The notes: generated from the sequence alone by a model not told the origin. A stretch of 15,439 nt of DNA from an uncultured Nitrososphaerota archaeon (GCA_964518475.1 CAZFGR010000032.1:1-15439), one strand, 5' to 3'; positions 1 to 15,439 are shown, numbered from the stretch's first letter. Numbers and translations: made by a program.

Positions 1-37
1 CTTTCAATTCCCTTGTCTGGGAGTCTAGTTCTGGCTC
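1..37 (-). CRISPR. Leader-proximal repeat of CRISPR array 1 (array presumably continues beyond the left edge)
   Basis: The + strand reads CTTTCAATTCCCTTGTCTGGGAGTCTAGTTCTGGCTC (37 nt); the minus strand reads GAGCCAGAACTAGACTCCCAGACAAGGGAATTGAAAG. It has the typical ATTGAAAG 3' end (8-nt crRNA 5' tag) preceded by a TCCC/GGGA stem. Related copies occur at 14812, 14887, 15324 and 15402. Only one copy is visible at this end. Confidence 0.85.
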
Positions 38-332
38 CGAGGCTCTTTTCGAGCCCCTTGTCCCGATACTCAAATTCTGATAGAGTTGATTTCGAACATC
101 TATAATTTGCTACTGGGTATTTAAATATGTTCTCGAATAGATTTCATTGAAGTGAAACTTAGTCGCACTTCTGTGCAAATCGTATTTATGTTTTTCTTTT
201 TTGTGTTTCTTCTCTTTTCATATATTTGCTATAGTTTCTCGTTTATGTGAGAAATTTATTCCGACTGCTTATCTATTTTTTTGGGATGTTTTTTCTCAAT
301 GATAAGAAATGTTGTATCTTGTCGTTGTTTCG
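38..332 (-). promoter_or_regulatory. CRISPR leader with TATA-like box
   Basis: AT-rich non-coding stretch between the cas6 stop and the 5' end (minus orientation) of the repeat. TATA-like TATTTAAATA at 118-127. Confidence 0.65.
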
Positions 333-9863: not shown

Positions 9864-11542
9864 ATGTACGAACAAAATAAAATAAGTGAAATCATAAAGG
9901 AGGTAATAAATAAATTTATTGAGCAGGTATCAGAGGATCCAGAAGGCGTAATAAAAAAATGTTGGAAGAAGATTGGGTAGGATTCTGTGCTGTGTCTGGA
10001 GAGAATAAAAACTACTTATCAATGATCCCTACGATTATTAACACCCTTTTCAAGAATTCGAAAGTAGTAGATAAAGAAATACGTGATGCCTTAGTTGACG
10101 AAAAACTTAGATCATCTTCTGACGAAATTGATGAAACAATGGAGAAGATAAGAAACATAGAAGAAATGGTTCTTGCTTGCAAATTTTTTAATCTAAGTGA
10201 ATTAGCAAGCAATGCTCTAATGAAATTATGTCAGACTATTTGTAAAAAATTAGAAAGTGTCGCCCGATTAGTTTTCATGAAATATAGAAAAAATGAAGAG
10301 GATATTAATCCTTACGAGCATTTTCGAGCATTAATATTGTCACGATTCGAAATTATACAAAAAGTTTTAGAACTTCTAGATGAAAAAGAGCTAGACAAGA
10401 TAGAGTACTACATTAGGCTTTATAGAAGATATCTGTATTTAGCAAGGAGCATGGCATATAATATAATTATGCATCACAATGAGATGCCAACTAATAGGGT
10501 ATTTCCAATATTTAAACTATATCCAAGTTGGCTAGAGGACATTCTCGATGGTTCGGACAATTCTACAGAAGGTATTTCTACAGATTCAGAAGATCGTCTT
10601 AAAATTTTGTATTTCATAGAGCATTATCTACCTAAGAATCTCCTCGAATTAATTACGGAGATAGTTCCAGTAGAAAGTTTAGAAAATAAATTAATATTAA
10701 TAGAATATACCTTGCAAGAGATGAAATGTAAGTTAAGCAATTCTATTAATAAATTGAGCGAATTCATAATTGGAAAGATCACTTTAAACGAAATCAATAC
10801 TAAAATTAAAGACTATTTATTGTTATTTCTAGAAGAAGAGAAGCTACTAAGAATAAAGAATAGGTTGATAAAAACTATAGCAGAAGCTATTATAGTTGGG
10901 ATAGTGCTTACTTTTGTAAAATTATTTAAGGAGATAGATGCGAAAAATAAGGTAAAATATCCAGTAAGATACTTAGAAAATTTCTTGCGTAAAATAATTA
11001 TCGATAAACACTTAGTTGAAATCCTTTATAACTATATGTTAGAACGACAAGGTTGTGCAGTTGCATATAACAGTTATCTAGGCCTGCTAGAAATAGATGA
11101 CAATAATAACTTTCAACTAAATCTTAAAGAAATAAATGAGATCGACTTAGTTGTATTCCGACCCGAAAAAATCGTTGAGATAATTGAGTTATCTAAAAGC
11201 AGAGATGTTCACAATTATGTAAAGGAGAAATTAAATAGATTAGGAGATATATATTCCTTTGTCTGGAAAATCCTAATGATGTGTGATCAAGTTTCACGAA
11301 TGCCATTTTCAGATTTTCTGATAAGCTTTAAAATAACTAATGGAAAGCACTCTGAATCAGATCTAAATTTAGTTAGAGAAGAATTAACATATAGGATACA
11401 TGGATCTAAAGAAGAATTAGCCATACCTGTATTGATACGAGCACAGCATAGAGTTATAAATTTTAGAAAGACCGCAATAGAAAAAGACATTTCAATAACT
11501 GATCTCTCCAATCTTTTTAATCAAGTTAATGTAAAGGAATAG
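9864..11542 (+). CDS. Uncharacterised CRISPR-associated protein: helical N-terminal region with degenerate HEPN-like motif, C-terminal PD-(D/E)XK-like nuclease domain; apparent -1 frameshift at A7 (9953-9959)
   Basis: Main ORF is 9959..11542 (527 aa). An upstream ATG at 9864 with a GGGAG SD reads MYEQNKISEIIKEVINKFIEQVSEDPEGVIKK up to the A7 run. Motifs: KHLVEILYNYML..AVAYN..NEIDLVVF..IIELSK (nuclease-like) and KLESVAR...YNIIMHH (HEPN-like). Confidence 0.6.
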
Positions 11543-11653
11543 AAACATTTCTTACTGAGAGAGAAATCAAACCATTTTGAGAAAAATGGATTTCCATACT
11601 AAAAAACTCATCTTATTGAAGCAAATAGCAAATAGACTTAGACATTACGAGTA

Positions 11654-12886
11654 TTATAATAAGACTGTTTCTTTTTCTCTTATTCGAGACTTCCAATAGA
11701 GTTGCAGTGATATTGTTGAGGGGCCTTGAGCTATTACCAATGGTTTATCGGCTTGTTCTAAAACACTATCAATGATTTTTTCTGCTATTATTGCATCTGT
11801 CGATGGTATTGGGTAGTAATTAACTTCTAATTCATTAACTGCTTTTATGCACATAATCTTTTTCCGCATCCATTCATCTAATAGTCTTGGCAGGAGAGAA
11901 TTTGGTGTATACAGTACATGGAACTTTTTAACATTTAGTAACTCGCTTAGAAGAAGTAATTGTGCAGTACTCCATTGGCCAGTCGCTATTGTTACGATTT
12001 CTTCACAAGCACTAAACTCTTTATTTCTTAGAGTATTAGCTATTAGCCAGAGCCTTCCGATAAGAGACTCCACCCTGATCCCAAGTAACTCTTTTATATT
12101 TTTAGTGACCTCCTCGATCCACTCTACGAAGAAGTCCCTATATTGAGGCACTAAACGTTGCCTAAGGAAATTTTCTAGAGAGGTCTTCTCTTCCTTAGGG
12201 GCGGGAATATGTACTGCTAGATGTCTCAGTTCTGCTTCGAGAGGCTCCATTAACTTGTTTAGTCGCTCCCTATACCAAGAATACGTATCAAATACCACTA
12301 ATTTAGCCATTTCCTCTAGTTTCTCCTCCACACTTAGCGCAGTTTCACTTTGTTGCTTGAAAAGAAGATACATCAACAATACAATGTTTTGAAAGAATAT
12401 TTGTCTTAGCTCCAATCCTCTCCTAGTAGCTGCTGTCAATAGAGACAGTAAAGTTAGCGTCGCTGACAACTCTATGAAATCCTGAGATAACTTTCCTTCA
12501 GCGTCTTCTATACTAATCTCCACCATAGCTTTTTCTGGAATAGATGTGAGTAGCAGGGGAGTCTTTAATTTCCTATGAATCGCTCCTAAGACTCTCGGAT
12601 CGGTATGTTCTTCTTCGGTTACCTTTGTACTGAGAATAAATGTGTAATTTGTTATTGGTGAGCTTGAGATTAGATGTAGGAGTTGAATGGCGCGAAGTTG
12701 ACCCATAGATGAGTTCTCCGTGTATATCATGAACTCTGATGCCAAAGTAATTAAGTCCGCTATGATTTCTGGTAACTGACCCCTCTTACCCGATATAAAT
12801 AGTATCTTAGGCAGTTCTGGGATAAAATGTCCAGCAAAGATTTTCCAGTTAGATACGTTTACTTTTATGTCCCATTTAATCGTCAT
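11654..12886 (-). CDS. Uncharacterised protein with C-terminal CARF-like domain
   Basis: Long ORF; the ORF track starts it at 12901, but the likely start is ATG at 12886 after GTGGGG, overlapping the upstream stop. The last ~115 aa, IVTIATGQWSTAQLLLL..KKFHVLYTPNS..VNYYPI..D..PLVIAQGPSTISLQLY, follow the CARF beta/alpha pattern. Confidence 0.65.
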   Translation of the reverse strand: MTIKWDIKVNVSNWKIFAGHFIPELPKILFISGKRGQLPEIIADLITLASEFMIYTENSSMGQLRAIQLLHLISSSPITNYTFILSTKVTEEEHTDPRVLGAIHRKLKTPLLLTSIPEKAMVEISIEDAEGKLSQDFIELSATLTLLSLLTAATRRGLELRQIFFQNIVLLMYLLFKQQSETALSVEEKLEEMAKLVVFDTYSWYRERLNKLMEPLEAELRHLAVHIPAPKEEKTSLENFLRQRLVPQYRDFFVEWIEEVTKNIKELLGIRVESLIGRLWLIANTLRNKEFSACEEIVTIATGQWSTAQLLLLSELLNVKKFHVLYTPNSLLPRLLDEWMRKKIMCIKAVNELEVNYYPIPSTDAIIAEKIIDSVLEQADKPLVIAQGPSTISLQLYWKSRIREKETVLL

Positions 12887-13979
12887 TATCAAACCCCACA
12901 ATAGACACTTTCAATGCTAAGATTTTCCAGAATTCCTTGTCATAGTTTTTCAGATCCCTAAGGTACCTCCCTTTGGCCTCTATCCTTCGCTTACTTTGCG
13001 TGCTTTTTACGTATATGTAGAAAGTTTCTGGAATTACGAGTATCCTAAATTCTTTCTCTAGAAGCGTAGCTAGAAGCTCCTTGTTCCAATCCTGCATAAG
13101 AATGAATATTATTTCACTCTTTTCATTTTTCGAGATACTCCCTATGAGATCATTAAAGTCTCTTTGGTATACATTAATACTAGTTGGCAACTGCTCTCTA
13201 AGACTGCACTCAAGATCGGAGATCTCGCGAGGGAATCTCTGCCTTAGATCCCTGTTCGTAACTAATATAACATCCCTTAACATCGTTTTAGAAATGCTCA
13301 AGAGTTTACTATACAACAGACCTATACTCTGAGCTATAGCCTCTACTCTATAACCTCCCAAGCCAAGCTGAGGAAGAATAGCCCACACCTTCGCAGTAGC
13401 AAGAACCTTCTTTAGGAGAGACTCCCTCTGCTGAATTAAGTTCTCAATCAAATCTTTATACTTATTCCAGCCCTCTTCCATAAATTTAATGAATAATTCG
13501 AGAAAATCTAGCGAATCACCTAATTCGCAACCCTTGCCAACTCTTATAAAATCCTCTCTCAGGGAATTCCTATATTCTTTCGCAATGAATAATAGTGAAT
13601 AGAAGAAAAGATTCATCATTTCAGGGAAAAACTCGTAAAGTTGTTCAACATTTCCACGAAACTTTTTCGTTGATGCCTCTCTAAAACGATATATTCTCAG
13701 ACGCCTAGAAAGAGAATTTAGCCTGTTCTCATCCCCCCACCATACAGTCAGAGGAGTATTAACGCTTACAAGCTGCCTTATCGGAACCTTAGACCACTCC
13801 TCCCTATAGACATCCTTACTAGGTTTTTCCAACAGGAATATGCCCCCAATAGGATCATCCATAATTAGCAATCCATCAGCCTCAAATATAGCATCCGTGA
13901 ACAAATAAGCAAGATCAACATCAAACACATTAAGCGAGAACTCTATCTTCCTAAATCTAGGATCATAAGGAAACCCCAT
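12876..13979 (-). CDS. Uncharacterised protein with probable degenerate CARF/Rossmann-like C-terminal domain
   Basis: 367-aa ORF with a strong GGTGGTGA SD. The segment VWAILPQLG..helix..RDVILVTNRD..EIIFILMQDWNKELLATLL..RILVIPE has the CARF-like strand/helix order. The ORF is secure; the domain call is weak. Confidence 0.55.
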   Translation of the reverse strand: MGFPYDPRFRKIEFSLNVFDVDLAYLFTDAIFEADGLLIMDDPIGGIFLLEKPSKDVYREEWSKVPIRQLVSVNTPLTVWWGDENRLNSLSRRLRIYRFREASTKKFRGNVEQLYEFFPEMMNLFFYSLLFIAKEYRNSLREDFIRVGKGCELGDSLDFLELFIKFMEEGWNKYKDLIENLIQQRESLLKKVLATAKVWAILPQLGLGGYRVEAIAQSIGLLYSKLLSISKTMLRDVILVTNRDLRQRFPREISDLECSLREQLPTSINVYQRDFNDLIGSISKNEKSEIIFILMQDWNKELLATLLEKEFRILVIPETFYIYVKSTQSKRRIEAKGRYLRDLKNYDKEFWKILALKVSIVGFDNDD

Positions 13980-14212
13980 TAACCAGTCACCACCCCCAAT
14001 ACCAGTAAAACAATAAGAAAGAACAAAATTAAATAATTAATCGAGAAAAAAGACCTAAAAATAACACAAAATTATTAAATATTTTTTAACCATTGTCCCA
14101 ATTATATAAACTTTTTGAACATAATTTTAGACTTCTCCTCGTAGTTTTTCTTTTTGGCTTTTTTTCACGCATCACAGGATCCATAAGACCTAAATCTTAT
14201 AATTATTCACTA

Positions 14213-14259
14213 GGCACCAGAGGAATTCCCTAGATCCCCCAGAAAAGATAGTAAGAAAG
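14213..14259 (+). repeat. Highly decayed CRISPR repeat relic, inverted relative to the other repeats
   Basis: CTAGATCCCCCAGAAAAGATAGTAAGAAAG (14230-14259) compared with the repeat's CTAGACTCCCAGACAAGGGAATTGAAAG. It sits at nearly the same distance from the L2 stop (47 nt) as the 15324 repeat does from the R2 stop (52 nt). Confidence 0.4.
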
Positions 14260-14287
14260 AACGTCGCCACTCACCAAAACGTCATTG

Positions 14288-14306
14288 AGGGAAAGAAGAA
14301 AAGAGA
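14288..14306 (-). terminator. Pyrimidine/T-rich archaeal terminator-like tract after L2
   Basis: The minus strand reads TCTCTTTTCTTCTTTCCCT directly after the stop codon. Confidence 0.4.
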
Positions 14307-14483
14307 CTAGGCGTCTTCGTGAGGGAATACATTAACGATCAAGTATGCGTAAAAACTCACTATTGCTGCAGCAATTATTAGACCAAGAACTATCAATTTA
14401 TACGGAGTCATCGTCCATAGTATTGTTCCTAGGATAATACCGTAAATACCAAATATTATGGCCAATTTATCAAGCTTATCCAT
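14307..14483 (-). CDS. Small two-TM membrane protein L2 (58 aa), not in the ORF track
   Basis: MDKLDKLAIIFGIYGIILGTILWTMTPYKLIVLGLIIAAAIVSFYAYLIVNVFPHEDA. GGTGA SD overlaps the upstream TGA. Aligns without gaps to R2 (P..I..GLI..A.I......L...V). Confidence 0.75.
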   Translation of the reverse strand: MDKLDKLAIIFGIYGIILGTILWTMTPYKLIVLGLIIAAAIVSFYAYLIVNVFPHEDA

Positions 14484-14490
14484 TAGAAGA

Positions 14491-14692
14491 TCACCGTCTC
14501 TTCAACTCTCCTTTAAACATCATATATAAAAATATGATTGCTACCATTAATAAACCTCCCGCAATTCCAAAAAAATGGAAGTGCTAAGATCGCATTCAAT
14601 ACTCTATCTATTCCGAAAGTGACAGAGATTGCAACAGCAAGAATTGTTCCTCCCAAAATTATTGCCAGAGCAGTATTAACATAGTCGATCAT
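14491..14692 (-). pseudogene. Small two-TM membrane protein L1 (66 aa when corrected), frameshifted at a T7 run
   Basis: Removing one base from the A7 at 14569-14575 gives MIDYVNTALAIILGGTILAVAISVTFGIDRVLNAILALPFFGIAGGLLMVAIIFLYMMFKGELKRR*. This aligns with R1 on both sides of the shift and ends at the TGA embedded in the SD of L2. TATA-like TTATATAAA at ~14729-14737. Confidence 0.7.
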
Positions 14693-14811
14693 TTCTAACC
14701 TTCTGTCTGTTAAAGTTTCATATAATAGTTTATATAATGAAGTCAACCAGCACAAAAATGGCTCCATAAGATACCTGATCCCAAATACTATTAACGAGAG
14801 AGAATACCATT

Positions 14812-14923
14812 CCTTCAATTCCCTCGTTTTGGAGTCTAGTTCTGGCTCGTATTCGTTGGGGACTATACTTCAAAAAGTGATGAGATCTTTCAATTCTCTT
14901 GTCTGGGAGTCTATTATTGATTC
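14812..14923 (-). CRISPR. Degenerate repeat-spacer-repeat unit (trailer end of array 2, or a mini-array)
   Basis: Repeat 14812-14848 has 4 mismatches to repeat 1-37. The spacer at 14849-14886 is 38 nt. Repeat 14887-14923 has 6 mismatches, 5 of them in its last 10 nt. Confidence 0.85.
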
Positions 14924-15097
14924 CTCGCTATTATTCTAGGCTTCTCGCTTATATTGGCTACTCTGTCATTAGCGATTCCAAGTTTTGATTCTGTTGTGCA
15001 AGGTATTCTTGCATTACCGTTTTTAGGTCTGGGAATTGCTTTAATACTAACCGTTGCATTATTTATATATTGGGTAATAAAAGAAAGGTTAGGGTGA
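14921..15097 (+). pseudogene. Small two-TM membrane protein R1, paralog of L1, lacking its start (5' end abuts the repeat)
   Basis: FLAIILGFSLILATLSLAIPSFDSVVQGILALPFLGLGIALILTVALFIYWVIKERLG*; about 23 identities over 57 aa to corrected L1 by hand alignment. In-frame TGA at 14918-14920 and no ATG. Confidence 0.7.
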
Positions 15098-15103
15098 GAT
15101 GGT

Positions 15104-15271
15104 ATGAGTAAATGGTTAGTAGCGTTTGTCATTATTTTCATAATCGCTTTAGTATACGGCATACAAACATTACCGATCAACATCATATTAACTGGCCTGA
15201 TTTTGTTAGCAATAATTAATGCAATTGCAGTAATCTTAGTGGAGAAAGTAGGAATGAGAGACGAATACTAG
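15104..15271 (+). CDS. Small two-TM membrane protein R2 (55 aa), not in the ORF track
   Basis: MSKWLVAFVIIFIIALVYGIQTLPINIILTGLILLAIINAIAVILVEKVGMRDEY. GGTGA SD at 15093-15097 overlaps the R1 stop. Confidence 0.75.
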   Translation: MSKWLVAFVIIFIIALVYGIQTLPINIILTGLILLAIINAIAVILVEKVGMRDEY

Positions 15272-15291
15272 CTTTTTTCTCTTCTTTTTCT
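15272..15291 (+). terminator. T-rich archaeal terminator-like tract after R2
   Basis: CTTTTTTCTCTTCTTTTTCT immediately after the stop codon. Confidence 0.5.
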
Positions 15292-15323
15292 CGGTGATTA
15301 TTTATGAGTGAAAATGATATTCT

Positions 15324-15438
15324 CTTTCAATTCCCTTGTCTGGGAGACTCCTATTGGCTCGTCCGTGATTACGAAGTACATCTCGCCAGCTTCTAACTCG
15401 TCTTTCAATTCCCTTGTCTGGGAGACTCCTATTGGCTC
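15324..15438 (-). CRISPR. CRISPR array 2 (continues beyond the right edge)
   Basis: Two identical 37-nt repeats CTTTCAATTCCCTTGTCTGGGAGACTCCTATTGGCTC (15324-15360 and 15402-15438) with a 41-nt spacer at 15361-15401. Confidence 0.93.
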
Positions 15439-15439
15439 G

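Follow-up and report, generated by a model that had tools for sequence, protein, structure and literature searches.

A probable mobile-element fragment in a spacer slot beside a type III CRISPR operon of an uncultured Nitrososphaerota archaeon

Gene-sized pieces of mobile elements in the spacer slots of CRISPR arrays are rare and their origin is debated, with spacer-templated recombination set against the integration of untrimmed DNA. In locus F of Sulfolobus solfataricus, an 899-bp fragment of a pNOB8-like conjugative plasmid lies between two repeats (Garrett et al. 2015, PMC4390879, citing Lillestol et al.). In bacterial arrays, long spacers (100 nt or more) are rare and are mostly transposon insertions (Kupczok et al. 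2015, PMC4524480). Short units of repeats and a spacer have also been described next to cas genes. In CreTA, Cascade binds the promoter of a toxin gene through partial complementarity with the spacer (PMC8501985, PMC9458426), while a survey of the mini-arrays near type III arrays interpreted these as degraded repeats and saw no targets or conservation (Shmakov et al. 2023, PMC10120712).

In this work, we have analysed a stretch of 15,439 nt, the window, which is C32:1-15439, the remainder of contig C32 being its last 1.6 kb. The contig belongs to the MAG G000 (2.33 Mb in 121 contigs, 91% complete, 5.8% contamination), in which TBP genes mark the organism as an archaeon. A minus-strand type III cas operon, which codes for an HD-Cas10 of 907 aa and includes six RAMP-family genes, takes up most of the window, and Cas1 is encoded elsewhere in the MAG, on contigs C35 and C57. 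The features discussed here are collected in Table 1.

Table 1. Coordinates of the repeats, spacers and putative element-derived features of the window
Feature	Position	Strand	Remarks
Repeat copies	1-38; 14812-14849 and 14887-14924 (both degenerate); 15324-15361; 15402-15439; C32:15540		
Second fragment, different variant of the same element	14206-14811	-	Same three-gene stretch, more decayed, older
Decayed NTPase 5′ end	14206-14273	-	68 nt, C118/L017 type (MSGILSYFFP)
R2′, intact small gene	14307-14483	-	
psiR1, degenerate repeat	14812-14849	-	Core with 4 mismatches, one in the tag
psi-spacer, 37 nt	14850-14886	-	
psiR2, degenerate repeat	14887-14924	-	23-nt core with 1 mismatch; pre-tag hairpin lost
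Probable mobile-element fragment in the spacer slot	14925-15323	+	Homology to C118, L009/L017/L022
R1	14921-15097	+	Last 58 codons of a gene for a multi-pass membrane protein of about 225 aa
R2	ATG 15104-15271	+	Intact 55-aa two-helix hydrophobic gene; GRAVY 1.65; GGGTGA Shine-Dalgarno
Conserved intergenic region	15272-15303	+	T-rich tract and GGTGAT ribosome-binding site
NTPase gene start	15304-15323	+	First 20 nt (codons 1-6 and 2 nt), cut by the repeat
Last intact repeat of the b-type array	15324-15361	-	Cas6 cut would leave the 8-nt AUUGAAAG tag on RNA from 15323
Ordinary 40-nt spacer	15362-15401	-	
Next intact repeat	15402-15439	-	Array runs on to the leader at C32:15578 onwards

The repeat is 38 nt long and reads, on the plus strand, CTTTCAATTCCCTTGTCTGGGAG followed by a variable half of 15 nt. 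The copies at 15324 and 15402 are the same 38-mer, the copy at C32:15540 sits past a gap of 100 N after the end of the window, and the intact copies carry a 4-bp hairpin immediately before the 8-nt tag. [quoted passage not shown] The leader is kept in four other arrays of the genome, C32:1, C35, C45 and C82. For the first three of these the conservation extends over 230 nt, TATA box included (about 90 nt upstream), and the full motif GGGACAAGGGGCTCGA.GAGAGCCTC adjoins the repeat, with GAACATATTTAAATAC located about 90 nt upstream; for C82 the match covers only the 18 nt that are assembled beside the repeat (GGGCTCGA.GAGAGCCTC). Throughout the genome, the leader-side half of the repeat (15 nt) exists in a separate variant for each array, next to an invariant 23-nt tag-side core, and the solo degenerate repeats at C35:5338, C43 and C45 each fit one of the variants.

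The interval between psiR2 and the last intact repeat stands out by its length. It had been given as 400 nt, among spacers of 38 and 41 nt; the contrast holds and the sizes change by one nucleotide, a boundary shift, to 399 nt with repeats exactly at both edges and neighbouring spacers of 37 and 40 nt. The interval is thus outside the length range of canonical Cas1-Cas2 spacers (399 nt versus the 36-41 nt of the C82 spacers). We propose that it is very likely a piece from the interior of a plasmid- or virus-like element of the archaeal community, lodged in a spacer slot. Within it, the 3′ end of a gene for a membrane protein is followed by a small gene that is intact, by a conserved intergenic stretch and by the first 20 nt of an NTPase gene, and over this whole row it is colinear with C118, a contig of the same MAG, and with the loci L009, L017 and L022. 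R1 is an open frame from 14921, with an in-frame stop immediately upstream (14918-14920) inside the degenerate repeat, a TTG at 14954 as first usable start and a stop at 15097. It lacks the start codon and about 110 N-terminal residues of the full-length protein, and its alignment with the 226-aa protein of C118 (residues 111-158; score 95 against a shuffle maximum of 56; tblastn E 5e-7) starts at the first codon past the repeat edge. R2 has a start codon and a ribosome-binding site, neither of which is present in R1, and its counterpart is a small ORF for a two-helix protein, located behind the membrane-protein gene or overlapping it in all copies of the element; the equivalence is drawn from synteny and architecture, sequence similarity by itself not being significant. 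A T6/T5 tract on the plus strand (15273-15289) is a likely terminator. R1, R2 and this terminator-like tract had all been listed in the preliminary description, and all were found again.

The leader-proximal part of the interval is well conserved. Positions 15262-15323 are about 90% identical to the intergenic DNA and NTPase start of C118, L009-L013, L017-L020 and L022, although the coding DNA on the flanks of the intergenic region (15272-15303) has diverged. The last 31 nt (15293-15323) are identical to L022 and match an element that co-occurs with the host at 31/31. The start of the NTPase gene, ATGAGTGAAAATGATATTCT, is identical in L009-L013, L022 and L023; beyond it the element reads on into TGAATACTTG, as does the NTPase gene of the free element on a contig of sequencing run X1, and the window changes to the repeat. 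At either end the repeat edge is the very point at which a gene is cut, and the interval is therefore a piece from within the gene row.

A second, inverted fragment lies on the other side of the degenerate mini-array. Its membrane-protein frame aligns with residues 74-143 of the C118 protein (score 88, shuffle maximum 56), from the first codon outside psiR1, at which the gene is cut exactly, and a frameshift splits it within an A7 homopolymer (14569-14575; T7 on the coding strand) that is the same in the independent X1 contig. The end at 14206-14273 scores 33 against the C118-type NTPase 5′ end, a value reached by 0/500 shuffles; as a decayed CRISPR repeat, the same stretch scores only 22-24 (p 0.02-0.03), so we discarded that assignment in favour of the NTPase 5′ end. 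The NTPase genes of the two fragments are of different types, MSENDIL in the plus-strand fragment (as in L009 and L022) and MSGILSYFFP in the inverted one, and the R1 regions are about 45% identical. Thus, the two fragments represent two independent captures from sister elements and no recent inverted duplication.

The locus resembles the S. solfataricus locus F in having a gene-sized piece of a mobile element exactly between archaeal repeats in an old or inactive part of a CRISPR locus. In contrast to locus F, the fragment in the window is 399 nt long, adjoins a type III operon and lies at the seam of two repeat variants, with a second, inverted fragment from a sister element across a degenerate mini-array. 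With the long bacterial spacers it shares a rare over-long interval among regular repeats, but the interval has no transposase or terminal repeats and is instead a colinear internal gene fragment. A gene-sized element piece in a spacer slot is a rare oddity that has already been described, of which the window is a further well-resolved case. It offers an archaeal type III example with a clear anatomy, in which two independent fragments from sister elements are cut at repeat edges.

Could one of these junctions have been made by the assembler? Run X1, assembled independently, gives a contig that spans 13700-15217 with zero differences, which shows the left junction to be real. The junction on the right (15323/15324, ATGATATTCT followed by CTTTCAATTCC) is seen in this assembly only: the X1 Logan contig ends at 15217, and the junction word had 0 matches in the JGI metagenomes. 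Short contigs of another run, X2, cover 14259-14506, 14627-14923 and 15323-15438 and leave 14976-15265 uncovered, with no contig spanning the gap, and we do not count this hole as evidence of an empty site. A chimeric join in a metagenome that also contains the free element would agree with the end of the X1 contig and the missing junction word, with a MAG of 121 contigs and 5.8% contamination, and with the greater depth of the element in the same run, where the contig that continues into an intact NTPase gene has a depth of 64 and the host locus of 20. We nevertheless consider a chimera very unlikely. The X1 contig, which also carries the cas side, agrees at every position with the left junction and with 293 nt of the fragment, the element and the repeat share no word at the junction that could mislead an assembler, the element identity stopping at ATTCT, and a junction of the same kind occurs at psiR1, within the confirmed contig. 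In addition, 15286-15323 shows 2 differences from the X1 contig of the free element, so the copy in the window is distinct from it.

The degenerate mini-array that separates the two fragments differs from the adjacent array. The variable half of psiR2 has 3-5 mismatches to repeat variant 'a' and 6 to variant 'b', that of the adjacent array, and the variable half of psiR1 has 1 mismatch to the 'a' copy at window positions 1-38 and 5 to 'b'. Over the whole repeat, psiR2 has 7 mismatches and psiR1 has 9 to the array's own repeat, and 4-6 and 5-7, respectively, to another variant of the genome; the hairpins of both are weakened. The repeats that flank the 399-nt fragment are thus not of the same variant, psiR2 being 'a'-like and the repeat at 15324 being 'b', and the slot may mark the place where an old 'a'-type relic meets a younger 'b' array, rather than a spacer position of one array. 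The psi-spacer has no match of at least 13 nt elsewhere in C32, none of at least 17 nt in the genome and none in the element loci that we retrieved. As a degenerate two-repeat unit with no target and no conservation, the mini-array resembles those of type III loci surveyed by Shmakov et al., and it fits their view of degraded repeats (PMC10120712); it differs from them in that both of its outer edges abut truncated mobile-element genes.

The same mini-array invites comparison with CreTA and CrePA. Two degenerate repeats around a 37-nt spacer, a position between a cas operon and an array, and small genes adjoining reproduce the layout of creA (PMC8501985, PMC9458426), and a version with a protein toxin, CrePA, is on record (bioRxiv 10.1101/2024.01.05.574328). 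Together with the idea of addiction, this likeness suggests a guard in which a crRNA-like RNA from 14812-14924 directs a Cas effector to repress the flanking divergent membrane-protein genes. Such a guard is extremely unlikely here. A test for pairing between the spacer and a promoter fails, as the psi-spacer has not even a partial match of at least 13 nt in C32. Both flanking genes have lost their 5′ ends at the repeat edges, and their native promoters with them. The window's operon is of type III, whereas a CreTA effector would be a DNA-binding one of type I (or V), and type III mini-arrays have been found without targets or conservation (PMC10120712). Moreover, the tag of psiR1 is mutated, the hairpins are weakened in both degenerate repeats, and neither a seed-type match of the psi-spacer beside a PAM in a promoter of R2 or R2′ nor conservation of the mini-array in sister strains was found.

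What is the source of the two fragments? The gene row of the element codes for a multi-pass membrane protein, a small protein with two transmembrane helices and a P-loop NTPase with a helix-turn-helix (HTH) domain, of which the full-length relatives have 265-445 aa with a C-terminal HTH of the excisionase or AsnC type. In L017 (13.5 kb), the membrane protein and a full NTPase are encoded among about 15 small ORFs of no known family together with a serine resolvase, and pieces of the element are present in the MAG on C118, C55 (full-length NTPase), C98, C30 and C74 (two further L017 genes). The resolvase, the many small ORFs without a family, the patchy distribution and the existence of several variants point to a mobile nature, and from this context we infer a plasmid- or virus-like element of which several variants circulate together. 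No virus or plasmid hallmark gene was identified in the element. The membrane proteins belong to no Pfam, PHROGs or NCBIfam family, and the NTPase gives only weak nSTAND3 and RNA_helicase P-loop matches; a full-length NTPase relative had no match in a PDB sequence search. The 226-aa C118 protein has only two close relatives in a set of 5.8 billion proteins, in which a near-length search with R2 found no match; the protein atlas returned no usable match for either protein, and a pattern scan of IMG/VR with the 226-aa protein returned none. A search of 40 relatives did not find the DNA of the cassette, nor did a protein search of 13 other genomes of the order find the membrane protein of the element. 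The spacers of the MAG had no match in the retrieved element loci.

The region of R2 holds two open frames at L009:10500-10672, L017:900-1034 and C118 (L004):1200-1398. In the gene calls, the membrane protein runs on into a basic tail of low complexity (..KRKRRRKKK); the hydrophobic R2 frame starts from an ATG of its own, and the called membrane products of 223-249 aa are probably partly in the wrong frame.

The junction of element and repeat recurs outside the window. In L009-L012 and L023, which represent one population in several samples, the same gene row follows cas6 directly, and its NTPase gene is cut at about codon 115, where a two-repeat mini-array starts. The repeats of this mini-array are of another type (GTTTCAAAG...GGATTGAAAG) and stand in sense orientation relative to the element genes. 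Counting the two fragments of the window and the L009 locus, junctions of the element at a repeat edge have arisen at least three times, and the opposite orientation in the L009 locus, the only other one in which the element meets a repeat, disfavours an antisense arrangement by design. This third locus, in which the same element gene is cut by another type of repeat, and the living relative of the element in the same sample add to the value of the case. The spacer of the L009-type mini-array (L009:11040-11160, also in L010, L012 and L023) starts with ATGATATTC, the 9 nt found immediately before the window's junction, and L010 has an extra solo copy of the L009-type repeat near csa3. At C45:685-753, a T-rich word like the intergenic region of the element (22/23) abuts a solo repeat; we did not count it as a further junction, since similar words occur at C2 and C9.

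The position after cas6 in four contigs of that population (L009-L012), in a neighbourhood with Cas3, Csa3, PglZ and HerA, and the two fragments beside the type III operon of the window would also agree with another origin, namely that the row of membrane-protein and NTPase genes is an accessory module associated with CRISPR, not mobile DNA, and that the window holds decayed paralogues of it. This origin is hard to reconcile with L017 and L018, which carry the same genes among small ORFs and a resolvase with no cas genes, and with C118, C55 and C98, which lie outside cas contexts. The NTPase gene of L009 is itself cut by the repeat, and a search of 13 genomes of the order did not find the row. 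We therefore regard an accessory module as very unlikely, and return to a fragment of a mobile element.

How did element DNA come to lie between the repeats? We propose a recombination or integration event that would have joined it to the repeat boundaries. One candidate is gene conversion from the element across two neighbouring spacers, which would remove the repeat between them and leave exact junctions. The other is the integration of an untrimmed long prespacer, which predicts that the flanking repeats should be identical. Since they are of two variants, recombination is favoured over a single Cas1-Cas2 insertion. The preliminary description had named an oversized acquisition, or two arrays split by an unrelated cassette, only as alternatives to its main reading, and one of these is essentially what the evidence shows. 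The source DNA has a 5′-ATTCA flank at the leader-proximal end, and the single comparable protospacer (of a C82 spacer, on C39) has 5′-ATTCC, which with one reference is no more than a hint at a PAM. In a search for an att-like site or microhomology, the NTPase 5′ region showed no resemblance to the repeat (p above 0.25).

In type III systems, Cas6 makes the 5′ tag of the crRNA, the 3′ end is trimmed to a length set by the complex, and the targets are RNAs. By this logic, a pre-crRNA from the leader would run antisense through the fragment and Cas6 would cut in 15324-15361, giving a AUUGAAAG-tagged antisense RNA as had been anticipated; there is no run of at least 5 A on the plus strand within 14925-15323, and so no U-run terminator for the minus-strand array transcript in the interval. 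A type III complex would protect only the first 31-40 nt or so, from 15323 downwards, and the remainder would be trimmed. The predicted product is a crRNA of the ordinary kind, which would pair with the NTPase mRNA at its ribosome-binding site and first codons, and the end of the fragment that would be kept in it matches the co-occurring relative perfectly. Antisense transcripts of an array that match the tag are treated as self in type III systems (PMC4390879). The element would count as foreign, its 3′ flank UGAAUACU having no pairing to the tag, while the plus-strand transcript of the array itself would bear the anti-tag and be treated as self. The antisense polarity of the fragment would be what a type III guide needs, yet it would be expected in 50% of cases by chance. 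The hydrophobic ORFs would be passengers of the fragment, with no toxin module.

The preliminary description had favoured a different role for these ORFs, a type I-like toxin-antitoxin pair in which R1 or R2 would be the hydrophobic toxin, the Cas6-cut pre-crRNA would be the antitoxin, and loss of the array or of Cas6 would kill the cell. R2 does have the appearance of such a toxin: it is intact, strongly hydrophobic and equipped with a ribosome-binding site, and it lies antisense to the likely array transcript with no terminator between; R2′ is intact as well, while the first gene is disabled in both fragments. The proposal finds no support in the comparison with the element, and we give it very little credence. 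The cassette is a piece of a mobile-element operon cut at both ends, in which R1 lacks a start and the 29 nt upstream of it show no evident promoter, and the counterparts of R2 are regular genes upstream of the element's NTPase gene, with no antisense array. The arrangement was not found in relatives (40 searched by DNA, 13 genomes of the order by protein), the orientation of element and repeat in L009 is sense, and no protein family supports a toxin. Unlike a type I system, the locus would draw its antisense RNA from read-through of the array instead of a dedicated gene, no promoter could be assigned in it, and conservation as a unit was not found in these relatives.

The intactness of R2 and R2′ could reflect a selected function of R2, and it is also not surprising for short ORFs that have undergone mild decay. 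A variant of the addiction idea would have both genes kept because they are harmful if expressed, with read-through of the array and a type III crRNA from 15323 repressing them. This, too, we think most improbable; if true, the cell could hardly lose the array and the machinery that processes it, owing to a gene derived from an element, and the locus would be a counterpart of CreTA that acts at the RNA level with a type III effector. The more general lesson is that a hydrophobic ORF antisense to a CRISPR array should be checked for being a gene fragment before it is called a toxin.

Two minor observations concern other parts of the genome. Three genes coding for proteins of 527, 415 and 367 aa lie between the type III operon and the fragments (9959-13979); they belong to no Pfam, PHROG or NCBIfam family and do not resemble any of the element contigs that we examined. 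In the C82 array, the spacer next to the leader matches C39:6774-6807 at 33/34, with the 5′ flank ATTCC on the crRNA-sense strand, and this match is either a self-target or a sign that C39 is a co-binned mobile element.
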